Position numbers and translations under genes: made by a program. DNA of 64,000 nt from Bacteroidota bacterium. Lineage in GTDB: Bacteria; Bacteroidota; Bacteroidia; Chitinophagales; BACL12. The first letter of the stretch is position 1. Each line of letters opens with the position of its first letter. Below the pieces are notes generated by a model. The model made no database searches, was not told where the DNA came from, and was given only the letters and a program-made list of their open reading frames with translations. The stretch lies in assembly GCA_016718035.1 (NCBI GenBank), contig JADKEK010000001.1, positions 541,276 to 605,275 on the forward strand, given 5' to 3'. Below are positions 5,419 through 60,344 of this stretch, piece after piece.

Positions 5419-5444
5419 AATCTTGTTATACCTTTGTAACATCT

Positions 5445-5535
5445 CATGGGGTGTTGTTTGTTCGCAAGCGACTGAGATTAAACCCATCGAACCTGGCCGG
5501 GTAATTCCGGGTAGGGATTGAGGAAATTATTATTT
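5445..5535 (+). promoter_or_regulatory. TPP (THI-box) riboswitch
   Basis: The conserved THI-element blocks occur in the right order: GGGGTG, CTGAGA, ACCC, GAACCTG, GGTAAT.CCGGG, TAGGGA. A downstream pairing of gcaaagg with cctttgc ends just before the ATG at 5584 and could be the expression platform. Confidence 0.85.
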
Positions 5536-11748: not shown

Positions 11749-11778
11749 CCCCGAAACTCCCCGTCTTCCCGCCTTCCC
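11749..11778 (-). other. G-quadruplex-type tract on the sense strand downstream of prfC
   Basis: The plus strand reads CCCCgaaactCCCCgtcttCCCgccttCCC. The minus (sense) strand therefore has four G3-4 tracts with 5-6 nt loops, 38-67 nt after the prfC stop. Confidence 0.5.
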
Positions 11779-11815
11779 GGCAACCTCACACTCAGCAACC
11801 CTACACCCAGCAACC

Positions 11816-13414
11816 TCACACCAATGATGCAGTTTTAAACTCACTCGTAGTATGAAAAGTAATTTTAGGATGATTTTCAATAGCCACATTCAAAGCCCAA
11901 CCCGTCTCCGCCATATAAACCGGATTCTGGTCCTTATCAAAATAAATGTAATCTATTTTTAATCGTATAAATTCATCCAATTGTTTTTTATCTGTAGTAG
12001 TCATCCAACACGCCTTATTCATATGAATAGGTTGAAAACGACATTTCGCTCCATATTCATTTTCCAAACGATATTGAATTACCTCAAACTGCAATTCCCC
12101 GACAGCACCCACCACTTTTTTATATCCGTTGTTATGAATAAATAACTGCGCAACGCCTTCATCAGTCAACTGCTGAATACCCTTTTCTAATTGTTTCGTT
12201 TTCATAGGATCCATGTTAATCAACTCCTTAAATATTTCAGGAGAAAAACTTGGAATACCTCTAAACATCATATCTTCACCTTCAGTAAGTGTATCACCAA
12301 TTTTAAAATTTCCGGTATCGTATAAACCAATTACATCACCCGGAAATGCCTCTTCAATTACATCTTTACTCGACGCTAAAAAGGCATAAGGATTATTAAA
12401 TCGTAAATTTTTATCCAAACGAACATGATGATAAAAACTATTGCGTTCAAAATGCCCCGAACACACACGTAAAAATGCAATTCTGTCCCTGTGGCGAGGA
12501 TCGATGTTTGCGTGAATTTTAAAAATGAATCCGGTAAATTTATTTTCGTCGGCGTCTACAAAACGAACATCCGTTTCTCTTCCTTGAGGCACAGGGGAAA
12601 TCTGAATAAATGTCTCCAATAATTCCTGCACACCAAAATTATTTATCGCAGAACCAAAAAATACCGGTGCAATATCTGCATCTAAATACGGTTTGCGGTC
12701 AAATTCATGATATACACCTTCAATCAGCTCTACATCTTCACGCAATTGTTTCGCATCGCGTTCGCCAACCTGTTTATCTAATAAACCATCTTTTAAATCC
12801 TCTATAATTAACACATCATCTTCAACACGCTGTGAACCCGGGCGGAATAAATTGAGTTTTTTATGATACAACGAATACACACCTTTAAAATGTGTTCCCA
12901 TGTTGATCGGCCAACTCAAAGGGCGCACACGAATTTTAAGTTTTTCTTCTAATTCATCCAATAAATCAAATGGATCTTTTCCATCGCGGTCCATTTTGTT
13001 GATGAAAATGATAACCGGCGTTTTGCGCATGCGACAAACTTCCATCAATCGCATGGTTTGCTCTTCCACACCTTTCACGCAGTCGATTACCAGGATAACA
13101 CTATCCACAGCTGTTAAGGTGCGATAGGTATCTTCAGCAAAGTCCTTGTGACCGGGAGTATCCAATAAATTCACTTTAACACCCTCATATTCGAACGACA
13201 TAACGGAAGTAGCCACAGAGATACCACGCTGACGTTCAATTTCCATGAAGTCGCTGGTTGCGGACTTTTTAATTTTATTGCTTTTAACAGCTCCGGCAAC
13301 CTGAATGGCGCCTCCGTACAAGAGGAACTTTTCGGTAAGGGTGGTTTTACCGGCATCGGGGTGACTGATAATGGCAAATGTTCTCCGTATTTGTATCTCT
13401 GATTGTACGCTCAT
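11816..13414 (-). CDS. prfC: Peptide chain release factor 3
   Basis: 532 aa with GTPase motifs [24 protein letters not shown] and NKMDR. The full-length architecture is that of RF3. Confidence 0.95.
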
Positions 13415-13557
13415 CTCTTGTTAATTCGGGCGCAAAGATAGTGATTTCAGGAAGAAGGGAACCTGCCTGGTGGCAGACAGGCACAGAAGATCTGCATGGC
13501 GGCAGATTACGCTGATAACGCGGATTTACGCGGATGCTTTGTTTAAAATGGAATTAA

Positions 13558-13709
13558 CTTAGTGTTTCTTAGAGGCCCTTAGCAACTTTGTGGTGAAGGT
13601 TAGCTAATATTATTTATTTCCTGATGATGTTTTAGTTTCGTAAATGATAATTATGAGACTAACCCATGTTTGCCACTAAGGCTCAAATGACCTCAAAGTT
13701 GCGCGAAGG
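13558..13709. repeat. Inverted-arm intergenic element with phased CTTNG pentamers (copy A)
   Basis: Left arm has CTTNG at 13558, 13568, 13578 and 13586, then TGG. Right arm has CCA, then CNAAG at 13676, 13684 (degenerate), 13694 and 13704. An AT-rich core lies between the arms. Confidence 0.7.
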
Positions 13710-13932
13710 ATTTAAGATCAACCAACCCGCAATTTTTTGACTGTTCTTTATTAAAGATTGGAAGAAAAATGAAGCCAAAGGCCAAAGTAGGGGCGAATTG
13801 AATCCGCCCCGTAATTGGGCTTTGGCGATTGAGTTCACAATACTTAAGCTAATATTTTATAGCAACTAATTTGTGCATAAGCAGGTCAATCAAAACCCCT
13901 CATCCCTCATCCACATTTCCTACATTTGTAAC

Positions 13933-14385
13933 ATGACAAAACGAAAGGACTTTGCTTACGTTGCTATACAATTTTTTTTATTGGCCTGTTATTTTTTATT
14001 AATTAATCAAAGGGCAGGAGGTACTCCGTTCTGGATGCAAATTATTAGTGGAATTTTGGTTGTGCTAGGAACGGTATTGGTGATATTGCCAATTTTACAA
14101 TTAAATAAATTTATTAGTGTTTTTCCAACTCCGGTTAATGGGGCTTTATTGGTGACGAATGGTGCATTTAAATATATTCGTCATCCGATATATGCGGGTA
14201 TTATTTTAGGTGGTGCGGGGTTGGCATTGATGATGAATAATTTATTGCAATTGTTGGTGATTATTATTTTGTTTGTATTGTTTGAAGTGAAATCAGATTA
14301 TGAGGAGCAACAACTTGCTAAAGTGTTTAAGGATTATGAGGAGTATAAAAAACATACTTATAAATTCTTTCCTGGAATGAGGTAG
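13933..14385 (+). CDS. Isoprenylcysteine carboxyl methyltransferase (ICMT) family membrane protein
   Basis: Multi-pass membrane protein with RHPIYAG and a C-terminal SDYEEQQL..F..YEEYKK pattern. I chose the start at ATG 13933. Confidence 0.7.
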   Translation: MTKRKDFAYVAIQFFLLACYFLLINQRAGGTPFWMQIISGILVVLGTVLVILPILQLNKFISVFPTPVNGALLVTNGAFKYIRHPIYAGIILGGAGLALMMNNLLQLLVIIILFVLFEVKSDYEEQQLAKVFKDYEEYKKHTYKFFPGMR

Positions 14386-14395
14386 TGGGTTAGCC

Positions 14396-14428
14396 GGGAA
14401 GGCGGGAAGGAGGGAAGTTGCGGGGGGG
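14396..14428 (+). other. G-quadruplex-type tract on the sense strand downstream of the ICMT-family gene
   Basis: GGGaaggcGGGaaggaGGGaagttgcGGGGGGG begins 11 nt after the TAG stop at 14383-14385. Confidence 0.5.
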
Positions 14429-14510
14429 TGTTGCGAGAACTCAAGACAATATAATTTTCATTTCTACCCATCAAGTTATTTGCCTACAAAACTTAATAGC
14501 AATAATACAA

Positions 14511-14659
14511 CTTTGTGCTACTTTGAGGCCCTTCGCTTCTTGGTGGTGATAGCAAACTAATGCTATTAAAAACTTTTGTAAAACAATGACATAAATTTTA
14601 TTTTGTTGATAAGCCCATTTTACCGCTAAGTCTCTAAGGGCCTCTAAGCTACACTAAGA
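14511..14659. repeat. Inverted-arm intergenic element with phased CTTNG pentamers (copy B)
   Basis: Left arm has CTTNG at 14511, 14521, 14531 and 14539, then TGGTG. Right arm has CCG, then CTAAG at 14626, 14634, 14644 and 14654. Confidence 0.7.
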
Positions 14660-14795
14660 GATTAGTCCAATAGATCATCTTTTGATAGCATTTTTTTTCA
14701 TGTATCGATTAGTCCTAGTAAGTTGGTATTGCATACTTAGCCAACTCAAAACCACTCATCCCTCATCACTCATCCTTTTTCATTAATATTACATT

Positions 14796-15575
14796 ATGGA
14801 ACAACATCACAATCCTTTTGCGAGTAAAGCAGCACGTTTGTTATTGATATTAGGTGTGTTTTTTGTCACCAATGCCCTGTTGGCAGAATTAATTGGGGTG
14901 AAAATATTTGCACTTGAAGATAGTTTTGGATGGAAACCATTTAACTGGAATTTATTTGGTGAAAAAGGCTCACTCAATTTTACTGTCGGCGTTATTTTAT
15001 GGCCATTTGTTTTTATCATGACCGATATTATTAATGAATATTTTGGCCTGAAGGGTGTCCGTCGATTAAGTTATTTGGCCATTATTTTTATTATATATGC
15101 ATTCGGAATTATTTACCTAGCAATAGAACTTTCACCTGCCGGATTTTGGCCTGCATCTAATGTAGATAAAGGTGTTCCTGATATGCAAAATGCCTATGCT
15201 GTTATTTTCGGACAGGGTATGTGGATTATTGCCGGAAGTATTATTGCATTTTTACTCGGACAATTAATTGATGTATTTGTATTTCATAAAATAAAAGGAA
15301 TGACTGGTGAAGGAAAAATTTGGTTGCGTGCAACAGGCTCAACTGCAATATCACAAATAATCGATAGTGTTGTAGTATTATATATTGCTTTTGTCATCGG
15401 CCCACAACATTGGTCCGTCAATCAATGGCTGGCAATAGCAACCGTAAATTACGTCTACAAAATGACAGCAGCCGTAGCCCTCACACCCGCCCTCTATTGG
15501 GTCCACAACATCATCGACAAATTCCTGGGCAAAGAACTCAGCGAAAAAATGCGCGCCGAAGCCATGAAAAATTAA
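14796..15575 (+). CDS. yhhQ: Queuosine precursor transporter (VUT/YhhQ family)
   Basis: 259-aa multi-pass membrane protein with YhhQ-like blocks (ITDIINEYFG, VFVFHKIK, STAISQIIDS). Confidence 0.75.
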   Translation: MEQHHNPFASKAARLLLILGVFFVTNALLAELIGVKIFALEDSFGWKPFNWNLFGEKGSLNFTVGVILWPFVFIMTDIINEYFGLKGVRRLSYLAIIFIIYAFGIIYLAIELSPAGFWPASNVDKGVPDMQNAYAVIFGQGMWIIAGSIIAFLLGQLIDVFVFHKIKGMTGEGKIWLRATGSTAISQIIDSVVVLYIAFVIGPQHWSVNQWLAIATVNYVYKMTAAVALTPALYWVHNIIDKFLGKELSEKMRAEAMKN

Positions 15576-16038: not shown

Positions 16039-16169
16039 TCAGCACATTAACACATCAGCACATTAATTCCCGGCTGTTCCCACCTCGGCGGACGGTTCGC
16101 ATTGGTACATCGGTACATTTCCACATTGGTACATTAATCAGCACATCAGCACATTAACACATCAGCACA
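16039..16169 (-). repeat. Degenerate 8-bp-period array (ATGTGCTG / ATGTACCA words on the minus strand) abutting the dnaG stop
   Basis: Read on the minus strand from the dnaG stop: TAATGTGCTGATGTGTTAATGTGCTGATGTGCTGATTAATGTACCAATGTGGAAATGTACCGATGTACCAAT. The same module follows the stop at 42696. Confidence 0.8.
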
Positions 16170-18094
16170 TTAGCTTACAACAGGCAACACAGTAGTCCCA
16201 GTATCCTTCGCCAGTTTATTGATGATAGTTTGTAGTTGCATACTTTCTTTCATACACATTCTCACTTCATCTATTGATGCCTCATCAGTCAGTTTACCCA
16301 GTTCCTGAATACGCGCATCTACATCATGTTTCATTTTAATAATCTTTTTCAACTTCAACAACGAAATCGACTTCACAATATCCTTCCTCACCAAAAACTG
16401 TTTTTCCGTAATTGGCACATCATGCATTTTAATCCAGTTATCACTAATCTCGTATGGCGATTGTAATAAATCAATACACAACGATTTTATTTCTTCATCA
16501 TCGTGATTAATAAAAAATACCTGCGGTAAAAATTCATTATGTTCGTAATACGTTCTATATTCATCTACAACCTTACGATAAATACCATTTTCAAATTCCA
16601 CATCCGTTAAATTGCGTAAAATACGCGCAATCGCATTCTCCCCATCAATTTCAAAATTACTATTCTCCAATAACAAACGAATAATATCCCTTTCCTGTGC
16701 TTCATCCAAATGGAAAGTAAACGAAGGTTGTTCCTTCGCCACCGGCATTATTTCCGTATGTTCAACAGATGCTTTGTCGTTGGTAGAAAGTTTATCAAAA
16801 GCCCCTTTGCGCAGAATTTTATTTGTTTCAGATATTAATAATTGTTCTTCAACATTTAAATTGCGCGCCGTTTGTTTTAAGTAGAGACTACGCGTAATCC
16901 CATCAGGAATTTTGGCGATACTCTGCACAATATCTTTAATAATACCAGCAACTTTTACAGGGTCGCCTTTTGCATCTTCAAGATATAAATCCGTTTTTAA
17001 ATGGATGAGGTCTTTTTTATTATCCTCAATATATTTTCTAAAACCGTCAGCGCCTAATTTTTGCACATAAGTATCCGGGTCATCATCAGCAGGCAGCAGC
17101 ACCACTTTTACGTTCATGCCCTCTTCCAATGCAATTTCCAATCCGCGCAAAGCCGCTTTTACACCCGCACTATCACCATCATATAATATCGTTAAATTCG
17201 GTGTATATCGTTTAATCAAACGCACCTGATCCTGCGTCAGCGAAGTCCCGGACGATGCCACCACATTTTCAATGCCACTTTGCGACAACGAAATTACGTC
17301 CATATACCCCTCAACCAGATAACATTCTTCTAGTTGCGTAATAGCTTTCCGCGCCTGAAAAATCCCAAAAACAATTTTACTTTTTAAATAAATATCCGTC
17401 TCCGGCGAGTTAATATATTTCGGAATTTTTTTGTCCGCACTCAAGGTTCTGCCACCAAAACCCAACACCTTACCCGTGATGCTATGAATAGGAAACATCA
17501 CCCTGCCACGGAAAAAATCTTTGCCATATTGTGAGGTGAGCCCCAATTGTTGCAATAATTCAACTTTATAGCCCGTGTTGGAAGCAATGCGTGTAAACGT
17601 CTCCCCATCGCCGGGACAAAATCCCAATTTAAATTTTTCGATAGTATCGCTGCGCAGTCCCCGTTCGGTGAAATAACTCAAGCCGATACTTTTGCCTTCC
17701 TCATCGTTATGCAAATAATCGTAGAAATAGTTCTACGCAAAAGTGTTGATGATATAAAGGCTCTCCCTGCGATTTTCCTCCTGAATTTCCTCGTTTGTGC
17801 GTTGCTTTTCCTCAACCTCGATATGATATTTATTCGCCAGGTAAATCAGCGCCTCGCGGTAACTCAGTTGCTCATGCTCCATCACAAACCCCACCGAATT
17901 CCCACTTTTTCCGCACCCAAAACACTTATAAATCCCTTTGGGCACCGAAACCGTAAACGAAGGCGTCTTCTCATTATGGAAAGGACATTTCCCAATCAGG
18001 TTCACCCCCGGCGCTTCAAATTCACAAAATCCCCCACCACCTCCTCAATCCTGGAAGCATCCATAATCCGCCCAATCGTTTCCTTCGATATCAC
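16170..18094 (-). pseudogene. dnaG: DNA primase DnaG, interrupted by one in-frame TAG and one homopolymer frameshift
   Basis: Zinc finger CPFHNEKTPSFTVS..YKCFGCGKSGN, and TOPRIM motifs EGYMDV and DGDSAG. ORFs 17733-18005 and 16170-17714 are in the same frame, separated by TAG at 17733-17735. The first 30 codons (GTG at 18094, MISKETIGRIMDASRIEEVVGDFVNLKRRG) are out of frame across the C5 run at 18005-18009. Confidence 0.85.
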
Positions 18095-25532: not shown

Positions 25533-25829
25533 TTGGAATATGAATTATCTGGCCCAAATAAAAATGAACTGGAAAAAATGAAACCAGAGCTATCGGAAAA
25601 GTTTTTCGTAAGCGAAATTGGGTTATTCGGGTCAATCACCCGTGATGATTTTACTCCAAATAGTGACGTAGATATAATTGTTGATTTCAATAAGCCTATC
25701 GGTATTGAATTTATTGATTTAGCTGATTTTATAGAAAGTAGGCTACACAGAAGGATTGATTTAATATCTAAAAAAGCATTAAGAAAATATTTTTATTTGA
25801 GTATAGATAAGGAAATACAATATGTCTAA
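25533..25829 (+). CDS. Nucleotidyltransferase (MNT/MntA-type antitoxin)
   Basis: IGLFGSITRDDFTPNSDVDIIVDF is the minimal nucleotidyltransferase signature (GS..D.D). It is about 98 aa. Confidence 0.75.
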   Translation: MEYELSGPNKNELEKMKPELSEKFFVSEIGLFGSITRDDFTPNSDVDIIVDFNKPIGIEFIDLADFIESRLHRRIDLISKKALRKYFYLSIDKEIQYV

Positions 25830-25879
25830 ACGATAAGATACTGTATTACTTAAATGCATTATTAAAAGACGTACTCTAA
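25822..25879 (+). pseudogene. Remnant of the cognate HEPN (DUF86/HepT-like) toxin gene
   Basis: An ATG at 25822 overlaps the MNT stop by 8 nt, as in intact MNT-HEPN pairs. It reads MSKR then stop. One frame over it continues KILYYLNALLKDVL then stop. The RX4H-bearing body is absent. Confidence 0.4.
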
Positions 25880-26037
25880 CCTATTAATTATACATCAACT
25901 AAATTTTAGGCTTCAAAAGTGAAATATTTATTCTAAAATAGCCAATTCCCGCATCACTTAAAATTACCATCATTCATTCTTAATAAAAATTGTATTGCCT
26001 AATTATAAATTAGCAATTGTATCTAATTGTAGGGACG

Positions 26038-26780
26038 AATTGCATGCGTCCTTACGATTAGATATAATTGCGCCAGCCTCTCGAAAAATTAAAACACTCA
26101 TCCCTCATTTTTTATCATCAGCAACCTTAGCGTAACTTCGAGCCCCTTAGAGCCTTCGTGGCTAACAAGGAAAATGTTTTGTTAGTTTTAAATTCAAAAG
26201 GTTTACCACAAAGTAGCAAAGCGCCTCTAAGATTCGCTAAGGGTATTAAATGAATTGCATGCGTCCTAACAATTAGATACAATTGCGCCAGCCTCTCGAA
26301 AAATTAAACACTCATCCCTCATTTTTTATCATTAGCAACCTTAGCGTAACTTCGAGCCCCTTAGAGCCTTCGTGGCTACCAAGGAAAATGTATTGTTAGT
26401 TATATATTAAAAAGGTTTACCACAAAGTAGCAAAGCGCCTCTAAGATTCGCTAAGGGTATTAAATAAATTGCATGCGTCCTAACGATTAGATACAATTGC
26501 GCCAGCCTCTCGAAAAATTAAACACTCATCCCTCATTTTTTATCATTAGCAACCTTAGCGTAACTTCGAGCCCCTTAGAGCCTTCGTGGCTAACAAGGAA
26601 AATGTATTGTTAGGTTTAAATTAAAAGGTTTACCACAAAGTAGCAAAGCGCCTCTAAGATTCGCTAAGGGTATTAAATAAATTGCATGCGTCCTAACGAT
26701 TAGATACAATTGCGCCAGCCTCTCGAAAAATTAAATCCTCATCCAACATCACTCATCACTCATCCCTCATTTCTCATCTT
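26038..26780. repeat. Tandem repeat, about 3.5 copies of a ~214-bp unit
   Basis: Units start at 26038, 26253, 26467 and 26680 (aattgcatgcgtcc...). Each full unit holds a CTCATCCCTCAT word plus a CTTNG/CNAAG inverted-arm pair (26126-26161 and 26206-26241 in copy 1). Differences between copies cluster in the loop between the arms. Confidence 0.9.
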
Positions 26781-32425: not shown

Positions 32426-32619
32426 GTCCCTAAAAATGTAAGGGCGCCGCACCCCTGGGGCGCAGCGCCTTTTCTTACTTGAACGTCTCTGCGACAAGAC
32501 AAAGCAAAAACGCAAGTGCCATATACTTTAGTATAGTATGTGGCATTTTTGTGTATAAATTATTTGAACAAAATACATTTTCCTCAAACACGTGTTGTAT
32601 TTTTACCATGCATTATTGG

Positions 32620-32800
32620 TTGAAAAGCTTGTTAATTCAAGCTTTTCCTAAGAGGGAATCCGGTGAAAATCCGGGGCAGTCCCCACTGCTGTAATTCCGC
32701 AACCTGTTGGTAAACTTTTGATATCTCTTTGCCACTGTCCGCCTCGGCGGATGGGAAGGTAAATCAAAAGGTGGAAGAGCCAGAAGACCTGCCGGTACTG
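32620..32800 (+). promoter_or_regulatory. Cobalamin (B12) riboswitch
   Basis: Conserved blocks occur in order: AGGGAATCCGGTGAAAATCCGG, B12 box GCCACTG (32731-32737), GGGAAGG, AGCCAGAAGACCTGCC. It lies upstream of a btuFCD-like locus. Confidence 0.85.
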
Positions 32801-32902
32801 CACAATCAAAAACTTTTGGGGCAAAAGTTTGATGTAATCGGTATCCGTACTGTTTCCATTTATTTGCATGCCTCCTTATTTATTAACCATTAAAATCATT
32901 TA

Positions 32903-36398: not shown

Positions 36399-37177
36399 TG
36401 GAAGCAAAAACGCTGTTGGCAATAAATGGTTTAAGTGTTGGTTATCCCGATAAGGTAATATTAAAGGATATGTTATTACATATTCCTGCCAAAAGTATCG
36501 TGGCGGTGCTCGGATTGAACGGAAAAGGAAAATCTACTTTTATTCGCACCTTAGCGGGACTACAGCCTGCTTTGCAAGGAAACATTTTGTTTAATGAGCG
36601 ACCACTTTCATCTTATACCGCAATTGAAAGAGCACAATTATTTAGTATTGTATTACCTGGAAGGGGAGATGTAGTGCAGGGATTATTGGTGCATGAATTA
36701 TTTCATACCACACGTGTCACATTCACCAACGGATTTGGAAAAATTACCGATGATGATATTCAATTAATTAATCGTATTTGCACTTCACTGCATATTGAAC
36801 ATTTATTACACAAACGTATTTATCAATTGAGTGATGGTGAAGCACAATTAGTATTTATTGCAAGGGCTTTGATACAAGATACACCAATCATTTTTATGGA
36901 CGAACCGACATCCTATCTGGATGTGGTAAATAAAGCGGAAATATTTAATTTAATTCAATCATTACCCCAACAAAATAAAACAGTAGTTTTTACTTCTCAC
37001 GAATTGGAATTGGCATTACAAATTGCAGATTATTGTTTACTCATCGGCAACGAAGGCAAACATGTCTTCGGCACCACAAAAACAATTATTGAACAAGGTT
37101 ACATCCCCGATTTCTTCAACAGCAAAAACGTCCAATTCGACCGAATCACCGGCCGCATTAGTTTGAAAAATGCATAG
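36398..37177 (+). CDS. ABC transporter ATP-binding protein (BtuD/FecE-like)
   Basis: Walker A GLNGKGKST, signature LSDGE, Walker B IIFMDEP. I chose the ATG at 36398, which overlaps the permease stop (TAATG). Confidence 0.85.
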   Translation: MEAKTLLAINGLSVGYPDKVILKDMLLHIPAKSIVAVLGLNGKGKSTFIRTLAGLQPALQGNILFNERPLSSYTAIERAQLFSIVLPGRGDVVQGLLVHELFHTTRVTFTNGFGKITDDDIQLINRICTSLHIEHLLHKRIYQLSDGEAQLVFIARALIQDTPIIFMDEPTSYLDVVNKAEIFNLIQSLPQQNKTVVFTSHELELALQIADYCLLIGNEGKHVFGTTKTIIEQGYIPDFFNSKNVQFDRITGRISLKNA

Positions 37178-37244
37178 GTTATTGAAGTTAAAATATCTTG
37201 GTGATTATAAATTTATTTAGTGGGTACCCTTTTAATTTATTTAA

Positions 37245-37347
37245 TTCACCACGAAGTCTCTAAGTTCCGCTAAGTTGCTCAAAGTTTAAATGATTGACTA
37301 TTCATTCTTAGTGCACCTTTGAGCTACTTTGAGCCTTAGTGGTGAAA
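37245..37347. repeat. Phased-pentamer element in the opposite (tail-to-tail) arrangement (copy F)
   Basis: CCA plus CNAAG at 37252, 37260, 37270 and 37280. After a 22-nt spacer, CTTNG at 37307, 37317, 37327 and 37335, then TGGTG. Confidence 0.7.
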
Positions 37348-37367
37348 AAATGATCGAATTATTACTT

Positions 37368-37396
37368 CCCGAAACTTCCCGCCATCCCGTTTTCCC
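37368..37396 (-). other. G-quadruplex-type tract on the sense strand downstream of the methyltransferase gene
   Basis: The plus strand reads CCCgaaacttCCCgccatCCCgttttCCC. On the minus strand this gives four G3 tracts with 5-7 nt loops, about 40 nt after the stop at 37438. Confidence 0.5.
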
Positions 37397-37437
37397 GCCA
37401 AAAAAAACAAACATCTCAATAAAGCCTTCAAAAGAAA

Positions 37438-38034
37438 TTAAGCCTTTTTATGCTTCACCTCATAAATAACCTGCTTCACAATAAATAACACATAACGATA
37501 ATGTACAGACACTAATTCAAGGTCCATAGCTTCAAACGTAGCTTTCCATTCTTTATCGTTTTTATTGGTATGCGGACAAGGAGAGTAAAATAAATTCGCA
37601 AGTGAATCGAGCCAATAGGTTAAATATTGTTGCACCTTGTTGGTATAAATATCCTCCATAATAATCAGTCTGTCGCAAACGCGCCCAGCCTCTTTAATTA
37701 CAGCTTCAGGATTATCAATATGATGCAACACTGTTAATATAATACCGGCTTCAAAATGTCTGTCCGGAAATGGTATCGTTTTGCCATCATAAACAACCGG
37801 TTTTACTGAAGGGTCATATTCCCCTTCATGAATATCAACACAAGTAATGTTCAGACCTTCCTGCTTGAGCAGATGCGCGGCTAAACCATTTCCTGAGCCA
37901 AGGTCTAGAATAGCAGTGTTTTTTTTGAGCAGCGGTATTAGCGGTCTTATCTTTTTTCCGACAAATGGTCTTCCAATTGTATTGAAATACATTTTGCGAA
38001 ACAAGGGGACTTTATGAATGACGTATAATATCAA
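37438..38034 (-). CDS. Class I SAM-dependent methyltransferase
   Basis: Motif I ILDLGSGNG and a post-I acidic residue (VDI). 198 aa. Confidence 0.7.
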   Translation of the reverse strand: MILYVIHKVPLFRKMYFNTIGRPFVGKKIRPLIPLLKKNTAILDLGSGNGLAAHLLKQEGLNITCVDIHEGEYDPSVKPVVYDGKTIPFPDRHFEAGIILTVLHHIDNPEAVIKEAGRVCDRLIIMEDIYTNKVQQYLTYWLDSLANLFYSPCPHTNKNDKEWKATFEAMDLELVSVHYRYVLFIVKQVIYEVKHKKA

Positions 38035-42698: not shown

Positions 42699-42808
42699 TG
42701 TGCTGATGGGGATGTGCTGATGTGCTAATTAATGTACCAATGTGTGAATGTACCGATGTACCAATTTGGGGAATGTACCAATGTGAGAATGTACCGATGT
42801 ACCAATTG
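42698..42808 (+). repeat. Degenerate 8-bp-period array (ATGTGCTG / ATGTACCA words) starting inside the symporter stop codon
   Basis: TAATGTGCTGATGGGGATGTGCTGATGTGCTAATTAATGTACCAATGTGTGAATGTACCGATGTACCAAT... It matches the module after the dnaG stop in blocks of 13, 15, 17 and 19 identical nt. Confidence 0.8.
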
Positions 42809-42906: not shown

Positions 42907-42944
42907 ATTTGCTAATTTGCTAATCAGCTAATTTGCTAATTTCC
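42907..42944 (+). repeat. Short 8-bp-period array (ATTTGCTA words)
   Basis: atttgcta atttgcta atcagcta atttgcta atttcc. Confidence 0.6.
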
Positions 42945-60108: not shown

Positions 60109-60116
60109 TATTTTTG
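60109..60116 (+). promoter_or_regulatory. Bacteroidota-type -7 promoter box (TAnnTTTG) for the SRP RNA
   Basis: TATTTTTG ends 4-5 nt before the predicted RNA 5-prime end at 60121. Confidence 0.4.
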
Positions 60117-60120
60117 CGCC

Positions 60121-60216
60121 GGGCAAGTCCTATACGACCAGCTCCTGCTGAATCCCCCAGGCCCTGACCGGAGCAAGGGTAGGTGGTTGTAGCGGTGCGA
60201 TGTAGATCACTTGCCC
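60121..60216 (+). ncRNA. ffs: Small (4.5S-type) SRP RNA
   Basis: Closing helix gggcaagt pairs with acttgccc. Domain IV-like CCAGGCCC....GGAGCAAGG contains the AGCA motif, and GATGTAG lies on the 3-prime side as in E. coli 4.5S RNA. A T-rich tail follows. By my reading the apical loop is not a canonical GGAA. Confidence 0.7.
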
Positions 60217-60344
60217 TTTTTTATTTTTCATGACCGGTTGCCCATTAAACCTGTAGTTTCTTCATCGGTTGCCCGGTATTTGTTGAAAACCCAATGCGAT
60301 TTTACAAGATTACCTGCTAATTTTGCGGGAACGATTTAATTACT

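Follow-up and report, generated by a model that had tools for sequence, protein, structure and literature searches.

Inverted tandem-unit arms in Bacteroidota intergenic DNA belong to a cross-phylum family linked to GxxExxY nuclease genes

Six intergenic elements, named A, B, D1, D2, D3 and F, lie in a 64,000-nucleotide stretch (the window; G+C = 36.8%) of a metagenome-assembled genome (MAG) of a Bacteroidota bacterium (assembly GCA_016718035.1, contig JADKEK010000001.1, positions 541,276 to 605,275). Each is built from two inverted arms, and each arm repeats the pentamer CTTNG. Here we show that they are members of a family of inverted tandem-unit arms that extends across phyla and is linked to a gene encoding a small protein named GxxExxY. 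Conservation is seen in a short DNA word repeated within each arm and not in the pairing of one arm with the other. We consider it somewhat probable (roughly 55%) that a GxxExxY-cassette family includes the six elements as non-autonomous members that lack the gene, their arms being putative protein-binding arrays on DNA.

Exactly 12 arms in the window fit the skeleton CTTNG-N5-CTTNG-N5-CTTNG-N3-CTTNG-NGG, forming six inverted pairs. With a TGG end and at most two mismatches, the skeleton returned 12 matches against 0.00 in 100 dinucleotide-preserving shuffles, an enrichment over background that bears out the twelve arms, at these positions, of a preliminary description of the stretch. With an NGG end and at most three mismatches, the identical 12 were found against 0.02 expected. 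A looser search for three units at a spacing of 8-10 nt gave 22 overlapping hits (0.03 expected), all within known arms, and the window therefore holds no partial or solitary copies. Four CTTNG units at the 10-10-8 spacing occur in 12/12 arms. Column counts over the eight distinct arms yield a consensus richer than the skeleton, CTTNGNG-N3-CTTNGAG-N3-CTTNG-N3-CTTNGTGG-YRAA. The C, T, T and G of every unit are invariant across these eight, while the positions between units are only about 50% alike. The terminal GG is present in 8/8 and is followed by T in six arms and C in two, then by G in four, A in three and T in one, then by A in 8/8, and finally by A in 7/8.

Elements A, B and D1-D3 share one polarity, a (+) arm followed by a (-) arm across an AT-rich interior of 79 bp in A, 76 bp in B and 44 bp in D1-D3. 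The (+) arm of element A (13558-13708) occupies 13558..13593 on the + strand and, by skeleton match and column counts, reads CTTAGTG-N3-CTTAGAG-N3-CTTAG-N3-CTTTGTGG, then TGAA; its (-) arm lies at 13673..13708 on the - strand. Element B (14511-14658) comprises a (+) arm at 14511..14546 (+ strand) and a (-) arm at 14623..14658 (- strand). The three D elements follow each other at 26126..26241 (D1; arms 26126-26161 and 26206-26241), 26340..26455 (D2; arms 26340-26375 and 26420-26455) and 26554..26668 (D3; arms 26554-26589 and 26633-26668). The uniform TGG-ended skeleton first reported holds in general, with two departures: the (-) arm of B ends in CGG, and a single unit in the (-) arm of A is degenerate (ATTTG). 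Copy F (37249..37342) had been located correctly, and its arrangement is opposite to that of the others, with a (-) arm at 37249-37284, a 22-bp spacer and a (+) arm at 37307-37342, such that the CTT ends face each other. All 12 arms are intergenic, in settings that are divergent (A), tandem (B and D) and convergent (F). The neighboring genes encode RF3, a PEMT/ICMT-like methyltransferase, a Vut_1 transporter, a DUF4476 protein, an ABC ATPase and a methyltransferase. No direct repeat that could be a target-site duplication flanks A, B, D or F.

Three single-nucleotide polymorphisms (SNPs) between strains fall within arms, at 13563, 14542 (the free N of unit 4 in the B (+) arm) and 14651, and all lie outside skeleton positions. 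This placement is consistent with constraint on the words, though three SNPs are few; a near-identical ENA contig (L200), at 1.4% difference, is too close for testing constraint. Another locus from metagenomic DNA carries a near-identical copy of the (+) arm of A alone, in a different context, and the limits of this match are exactly 13558 and 13597. The repeated module is therefore the arm of approximately 40 nt.

To place these arms in a wider context, the exact skeleton was scanned for in one genome per species. At least 118 loci were found, where about 17 are expected by chance under an assumed uniform base composition, and at least ten phyla contain genomes with multiple copies of the skeleton. 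Among the matches listed, the multi-copy carriers include Chloroflexota, Planctomycetota, Acidobacteriota, Alpha-, Beta- and Deltaproteobacteria, Bacteroidota, Calditrichota, Gemmatimonadota and others; some single matches in Pseudomonas and Gordonia resemble unrelated conserved sequence. Cultured carriers of the arms are Pinibacter aurantiacus MAH-26, Emticicia aquatilis CGMCC 1.15958 and Uliginosibacterium sediminicola M1-21. In other genomes the arms are built by repeating an 8-mer four times (examples are CTTCGTGG, CTTGGCGG and CTTAGTGG), with TGA or TAA coming next. The window arms likewise feature an array of tandem units, a GG with a T/C-R-A(A) tail, and an arrangement in intergenic inverted pairs. 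Both polarities occur, with and without a gene between the arms. Among the matches listed, 35 pairs are (-,+), with spacers of 3-508 bp, and 12 are (+,-), the latter found only in the window and its relatives (MAG OTE_58, a Chitinophagales MAG). Five of the six window pairs thus have the polarity that is the minority elsewhere, and F has the arrangement that is commonest in other genomes. Outside the window, 53 of 122 exact arms (43%) have no inverted partner within 250 bp. Two arms 1.9 kb apart in a Gemmatimonadales MAG (L105) were considered as one element and rejected, being separate intergenic arms around housekeeping genes. There was no sign of carriage by phages; the skeleton has three matches in 2.9 million viral contigs, which we take as about chance level.

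In three loci (L014, L075 and L069), two arms bracket a small open reading frame (ORF) that encodes a GxxExxY protein, identified by NCBIfam TIGR04256 (E = 1e-43) and Pfam PDDEXK_3 (PF13366; E ~ 1e-41). Two of these, L014 and L075, come from MAGs labeled Bacteroidota, and there the exact 10-10-8 skeleton brackets the gene. To remove the selection bias of starting from arms, 80 GxxExxY loci were drawn independently from metagenomes by protein similarity alone, of which 76 had full flanks, and a run of at least two tandem units was scored as an arm. Arms were found on both sides of 61/76 genes (80%), on one side of 11/76 and on neither side of 4/76, whereas control windows 510-700 bp away had two-sided arms in 0/43 cases. 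The two-armed loci comprise 55 with the order (-,gene,+) and six with (+,gene,-). Their arms consist of 3-4 tandem CT-Y-N-G-Y-G units. The units include CTCTGCG, CTCTGTG, CTCCGTG, CTCGGCG, CTTCGTG, CTTGGTG, CTTTGCG and CCTCGCG, all of which fit C-Y-Y-N-G-Y-G, and the outermost unit is GYGGT(G/A)A; CTTNG thus represents a single variant within a wider family. The 10-10-8 spacing, first read as helical phasing, likewise proves specific to the window variant, since the family spacing is 8-12 nt, and the argument from a common helical face is weakened accordingly.

Between arms, GxxExxY is the sole recurrent gene, present in 45 pairs with 200-1500 bp between their arms. No other recurrent cargo was found, and no transposase lies between the arms in 198 loci. 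The preliminary description had suggested searching for a RAYT (repetitive extragenic palindromic (REP)-associated tyrosine transposase) or IS200/IS605-type transposase; the associated gene is instead that of the PD-(D/E)XK GxxExxY nuclease. Within one genome, a gene-less pair (L068) aligns with the L014 cassette minus its ORF at 135/166 identical positions, a match that takes in the inner GGCGC...GCGCC modules and about 14 nt outside the arms. This alignment indicates that gene-less pairs are the element minus its gene. Insertion of the cassettes in 23S rRNA was considered and rejected, as none of 20 loci scanned lies in rRNA. A GxxExxY protein found in identical form (P0028) was also rejected as a sign of recent movement, given that its operon site is always the same. 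A Bacteroidia metagenome contig (L201 2501-3010) carries a GxxExxY gene within a sugar-nucleotide biosynthesis operon, 11 nt past the upstream gene. A (-,+) hairpin with an AT-rich unit variant (CCATAAAAG/CTTTTATGG) and an ATGGTTA end lies 3' of this gene, and the context is identical across 10 samples.

The GxxExxY protein is approximately 130 residues long and belongs to Pfam PDDEXK_3. Among 8,000 candidates scored, 7,999 clusters (at 90% identity) matched at E <= 1e-10, and their sole name is 'GxxExxY protein'. Across 42 diverse members, E32, D72, E82 and K84 are invariant, corresponding to the PD-(D/E)XK catalytic set. The structure model (predicted local distance difference test score, pLDDT, of 94.5) has as its nearest fold the Cas4 protein SSO0001 (4IC1; E = 3e-4, template modeling score ~0.5), followed by the cores of lambda-exonuclease, RecE and alkaline exonuclease; RNA-splicing endonucleases are weak matches. 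PADLOC and PHROGs returned faint Cas4-like hits alone, and a sequence search of the PDB with the GxxExxY profile gave no match, so that the relatives come from the fold search. The predicted fold suggests that GxxExxY is most likely a minimal Cas4/RecB-type protein and a DNA nuclease. No study of its function was found in the searchable literature.

Two inverted arms can fold on each other, and the window (+,-) elements do fold better than shuffled sequences, with z of -3.0 to -4.8, because their skeleton positions pair with each other. Element A gives z = -3.35 on the + strand and -1.30 on the - strand, B gives -4.76 and -4.19 (-42 kcal/mol, against -26 kcal/mol for shuffles), and D1 gives -3.2 and -3.4. 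Pairing is, however, not the conserved property. The spacers had been described as non-complementary between the two arms, and indeed the non-skeleton positions of cognate arms in the window are 0.40 identical, compared to 0.50 for non-cognate arms. The corresponding values are 0.55 vs 0.56 in OTE_58, 0.74 vs 0.77 in a deltaproteobacterial MAG and 0.89 vs 0.86 in a Saprospiraceae MAG; overall, a cognate excess is absent in 4/6 genomes, including that of the window, and modest in two. In 44 (-,gene,+) cassettes the arms mismatch at 15% of positions. Selection for an RNA stem would be expected to favor G·U, and yet sense-strand mismatches comprise 47 G·U against 56 A·C (p = 0.43). Together with the solitary arms and the two polarities, the lack of a cognate or G·U excess shows that the arms are not conserved for pairing. 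No terminator-like site (a G+C-rich stem with a T run) was found at the elements in 13400-14800 or 37100-37500, and Rfam gave no match at the elements (window and 40 loci at the gathering threshold; E <= 5 around A and B). The earlier proposal that a long hairpin is not what is conserved is thus upheld, and the arms do not prove to be simply complementary terminator hairpins.

Elements B and F are transcribed. RNA evidence came from assembled contigs, without strand, of four metatranscriptomes, in which contigs at 14423/14436-14764 span all of B and contigs at 37176-37370 and 37211-37397 span all of F. In run X25 the B contig, at a depth of 21.8, is the deepest long contig of a 20-kb stretch, and its depth in X27 and X28 is comparable to that of gene contigs; the coding sequence beside B and F is mostly without RNA contigs. 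The ends of these contigs partly coincide with other high-copy modules and may thus be assembly breaks, and D was not assembled in the RNA data. We read both transcription and imperfect hairpin folding as side effects and not as the conserved function.

The sites occupied by these elements turn over between relatives. In the related MAG OTE_58, the orthologous PEMT-Vut_1 spacer contains no CTTNG arms and is filled almost wholly by (ATGTGCAR)n, (AACAGCCG)n and (TAATTAGC)n arrays (L098 5000-5330); the CTTNG elements of this genome, including a 217-bp tandem pair, sit downstream of the same Vut_1 gene (also L098). Among strains, none lacking A or B was seen in four DNA metagenomes. The copy number of the D array was unreadable, as short-read contigs break there. 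To the left of this array (25700-26015) DNA depth is about 6.5, compared to about 31 in the right flank, and this region appears to vary between strains. A lone MNT-type nucleotidyltransferase gene (NTP_transf_2) lies just left of the array at 25533-25829, with no HEPN partner seen.

More broadly, the intergenic DNA of this lineage is a patchwork of tandem modules with units of 7-8 nt. The D elements are carried by a 214-bp tandem repeat (26038..26744; 3.3 copies, 96% matches), which also holds half of a GGGACG-AATTGCAT-GCGTCC hairpin (26043-26062) and a CTCATCC run. This hairpin and a second one, GGGGCG-AATTGAAT-CCGCCCC (13792-13812), represent a repeated module also matched by contigs with other surroundings, and the boundary of the 214-bp repeat falls in its hairpin loop. 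CTCATCC heptamer runs, with variants such as CTCATCA, occur at 13897-13915, 14752-14776, 26735-26780 and inside each D unit (e.g. 26098-26112), with four double hits against 0.03 expected. They lie directly 5' of three start codons (13933, 14796 and 26822), and in position and style they resemble the TAACTGA direct repeats found upstream of start codons (PMC4679880). A further tandem-unit module, CTTCCCG/GGGAAG, has an architecture like that of the arms, with 7-nt words at a spacing of 8-10, and is found at 14393-14432 (G-rich on the + strand), 37365-37398 and 11765-11778. It is high-copy, with a DNA depth of 104-152 compared to 35 in its flanks, and is conserved in OTE_58 (L098 4140-4190). 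Just 5' of element A, an accessory module of two (A)CGCGGATTT copies (13519..13538, + strand) is matched by a (CGCGGAT)n module that precedes an arm in the Saprospiraceae MAG SJ668. Other intergenic tandem arrays are CCCAGCAACCTCACA x3, ATCAGCAC x4.8, AATGTACC x9.4 and ATTTGCTA x4.5 (11776-11822, 16137-16174, 42731-42806 and 42907-42942). Similar strings occur in fixed order in the Chloroflexia MAG MFD01213.bin.2.117, where (CACGAAG)x4, (CACAGAG)x2-3, (CTTGGCG)x4 and (TTACGTC)x3-4 follow one another (loci L007, L008, L015, L047, L052 and L112), and in L112 a (GCGGATT)n/(AATCCGC)n hairpin encloses a CTTGGCG arm within its loop. The Gemmatimonadales locus L105 (411-1709 and 3972-7223) contains an in-frame repeat, approximately PFP-GKGDRGLGR-GG-Q/K-GKTAGRQ, in DinB-like and DnaE2-like ORFs, which suggests that tandem-unit modules can land inside coding sequence too. 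Elsewhere in the window, Rfam models above the gathering score mark a thiamine pyrophosphate (TPP) riboswitch (5437-5535), a cobalamin riboswitch (32600-32810) and a Bacteroidales-type small SRP RNA (60114-60220).

Our preferred interpretation, that the window elements are gene-less members of the GxxExxY-cassette family, can be phrased as a mechanism. An arm comprises 3-4 direct copies of the 7-nt word CT-Y-N-G-Y-G, taking the form CTTNG(N)G x4 in the window, and the full-length form consists of two inverted arms bracketing a GxxExxY gene of approximately 130 codons with an intact E...D...ExK site. Each arm could then offer an oligomeric protein a platform of several sequence-specific sites on duplex DNA; the most plausible candidate for this protein is a GxxExxY nuclease encoded elsewhere in the genome and acting in trans. 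By analogy with the way RAYTs act on REPINs (REP doublets forming hairpins), the interaction between nuclease and arm may spread or maintain the arms. More tentatively, GxxExxY nucleases and their tandem-heptamer arms may constitute a class of selfish or mobile element that has gone unrecognized, the PD-(D/E)XK counterpart of RAYT/REPIN, with the window elements as its non-autonomous members. If so, and we hold this part just as tentatively, the nuclease would recognize CT-Y-N-G-Y-G arrays and propagate both the cassettes and the far more numerous gene-less pairs across at least ten phyla. Several observations weigh against our interpretation. There is no GxxExxY gene within the 64-kb window, and units 2 and 3 of the window arms mostly have A at position 6, where the family consensus is Y. 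The spacing range of 8-12 nt across the family is unusual for a rigid DNA-bound oligomer. Recent mobility is unsupported by target-site duplications or by presence/absence polymorphism at A and B, neither of which was seen. Finally, B and F occur in comparatively abundant RNA, which leaves room for an RNA-level role.

Such a role could take the form of arms that pair in the transcript, yielding a long imperfect stem that is cut (e.g. by RNase III, as in the intervening sequences (IVS) of 23S rRNA) or that protects the neighboring mRNA, with the conserved words as determinants for a double-stranded-RNA-binding factor; we regard this role as unlikely. The better-than-shuffle folding of the (+,-) elements and the RNA contigs that span B and F beside mostly uncovered coding sequence speak for it, as does the purine-rich arm located upstream of the gene in 55/61 cassettes, often 0-30 nt from the start codon. 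There is also a precedent: in 23S IVS a small ORF is enclosed by a stem of terminal inverted repeats, and this stem is a substrate of RNase III (PMC4990558). However, cognate arms are no more complementary than non-cognate ones, G·U does not exceed A·C, and the N of each unit is unpaired as often as not. Moreover, 43% of exact arms elsewhere have no partner, Rfam gave no match, none of 20 GxxExxY loci lies in rRNA, and the RNA contig ends may be assembly breaks at high-copy modules.

It is less likely still that the host has domesticated the arms as binding sites for a chromosomal protein of another kind than GxxExxY (a nucleoid-associated, replication or regulatory factor), in which case the cassette link would be secondary. 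The skeleton is strictly conserved in a window without the nuclease gene, solitary arms are common, arms are embedded in mosaics with other tandem-unit modules, and the elements occupy divergent, tandem and convergent intergenic regions alike, all of which would suit a host factor. Against such a factor stand the arms at 80% of independently sampled GxxExxY genes, compared to 0/43 controls; the patchy, multi-copy distribution over many phyla fits horizontal spread better than an ancient host factor, and the module content is wholly replaced at the orthologous site of a related genome. This rapid turnover, along with the wealth of other 7-8-nt tandem modules in the same genomes (CTCATCC, CTTCCCG, ATCAGCAC and AATGTACC in the window; ATGTGCAR, AACAGCCG and TAATTAGC in L098), would also be expected if the arms were a functionless by-product of replication slippage, like cyanobacterial heptamer repeats, and of gene conversion, with a skeleton that reflects shared descent only. 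We consider this quite improbable: the word CT-Y-N-G-Y-G and the terminal GG-TRA recur across phyla, invariant skeleton columns stand beside freely varying ones, which is not expected from neutral decay, and the arms are tightly coupled to one gene family. A classical DDE-transposon MITE (miniature inverted-repeat transposable element), a RAYT-mobilized REP/REPIN or a plain intrinsic terminator is very improbable, and largely refuted already, even though the elements are inverted, intergenic and multi-copy and F lies between convergent genes. No copy has target-site duplications, and no transposase lies between or beside the arms in at least 118 loci; the arms are direct-repeat arrays that are not self-palindromic and lack the REP GTAG head. 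Both polarities occur, no element has a stem with a T run, and A sits in a divergent promoter region. The earlier suggestion of REPIN/MITE ends nevertheless survives in spirit, as the arms are the ends of a nuclease cassette of which the window copies are gene-less; the absence of target-site duplications counts against its letter.

Comparison with known systems places the family near several of them and within none. Like REP/REPIN-RAYT systems, it comprises short intergenic repeats, mostly in inverted pairs and at tens to hundreds per genome, which flank a small nuclease-type gene in inverted orientation, with most copies gene-less and a patchy distribution. However, REPs are themselves palindromic, forming hairpins of ~20-35 nt that carry a GTAG head and are bound as single-stranded DNA by an HUH tyrosine transposase, whereas the arms described here are non-palindromic arrays of 3-4 direct heptamers and their protein is Cas4-like, of the PD-(D/E)XK type and from a very large family. 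No RAYT gene flanked by arms was found, GxxExxY being the sole recurrent gene between the arm pairs examined. The inverted arms resemble the terminal inverted repeats of MITEs, but there is no target-site duplication, and the parent-like element carries a PD-(D/E)XK nuclease and no transposase. Multiple subterminal repeats are likewise found at the ends of Tn7 and Mu. The ends of IS607-family elements, bound by several TnpA dimers (PMC6188088), similarly carry direct copies of a short protein-binding word and are inverted relative to each other. These multi-repeat transposon ends differ from our elements, which have no transposase gene and no target-site duplication, occur in both polarities and frequently consist of solitary arms. 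Small dimeric repressors such as omega of pSM19035 and MetJ bind heptad or octad operator arrays cooperatively. Such operators are also direct or inverted arrays of 7-8-bp words in which one word is one binding unit, but they are single regulatory sites at specific promoters and not dispersed multi-copy elements.

The cyanobacterial short tandemly repeated repetitive sequences (STRR) are comparable intergenic heptamer repeats. TAACTGA direct repeats, found between genes in Beggiatoaceae, Cyanobacteria and Bacteroidetes, are tandem 7-nt words with a patchy cross-phylum spread that suggests horizontal transfer, and regulator binding has been proposed for them (PMC4679880). Unlike the arms, these repeats are contiguous, identical and usually just 5' of start codons, with no inverted pairs and no nuclease gene (PMC4679880), and they resemble the CTCATCC runs of the window more than its CTTNG arms. 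The IVS of 23S rRNA with S23p ORFs, known from Coxiella and Leptospira, combine a small ORF of unknown role with terminal inverted repeats, are regarded as selfish and are transcribed with the host RNA (PMC4990558). Within the rRNA they form a 28-bp stem that RNase III cuts and that is almost perfect, interrupted by a single mismatch and a single bulge (PMC4990558). The arms described here are instead not selected for complementarity and form imperfect stems without wobble enrichment; the protein family differs, and the window copies lie between protein-coding genes, with none of 20 GxxExxY loci in rRNA. The nearest known systems are thus REPIN/RAYT in logic, multi-repeat transposon ends in anatomy, the 23S IVS in cassette shape (PMC4990558) and heptamer repeats in sequence style (PMC4679880). 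The arm family fails defining features of each of these; it is analogous to REPIN/RAYT and not a member. The searchable literature yielded no account of the arms or of a connection between them and GxxExxY, although database family notes may mention flanking repeats, and the repeat family is apparently undescribed.

GxxExxY/PDDEXK_3 is a very large family of small proteins of unknown function, and the arms offer the first concrete handle on the target of this nuclease. If the nuclease does recognize these arrays, it would provide a second, mechanistically different case of a domesticated or selfish nuclease that maintains intergenic repeats, and would also be a new sequence-specific minimal nuclease. 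For annotation, the arms and the modules that surround them account for a noticeable part of the 'empty' DNA between genes in several genomes of Bacteroidota, Chloroflexota, Planctomycetota and Proteobacteria.

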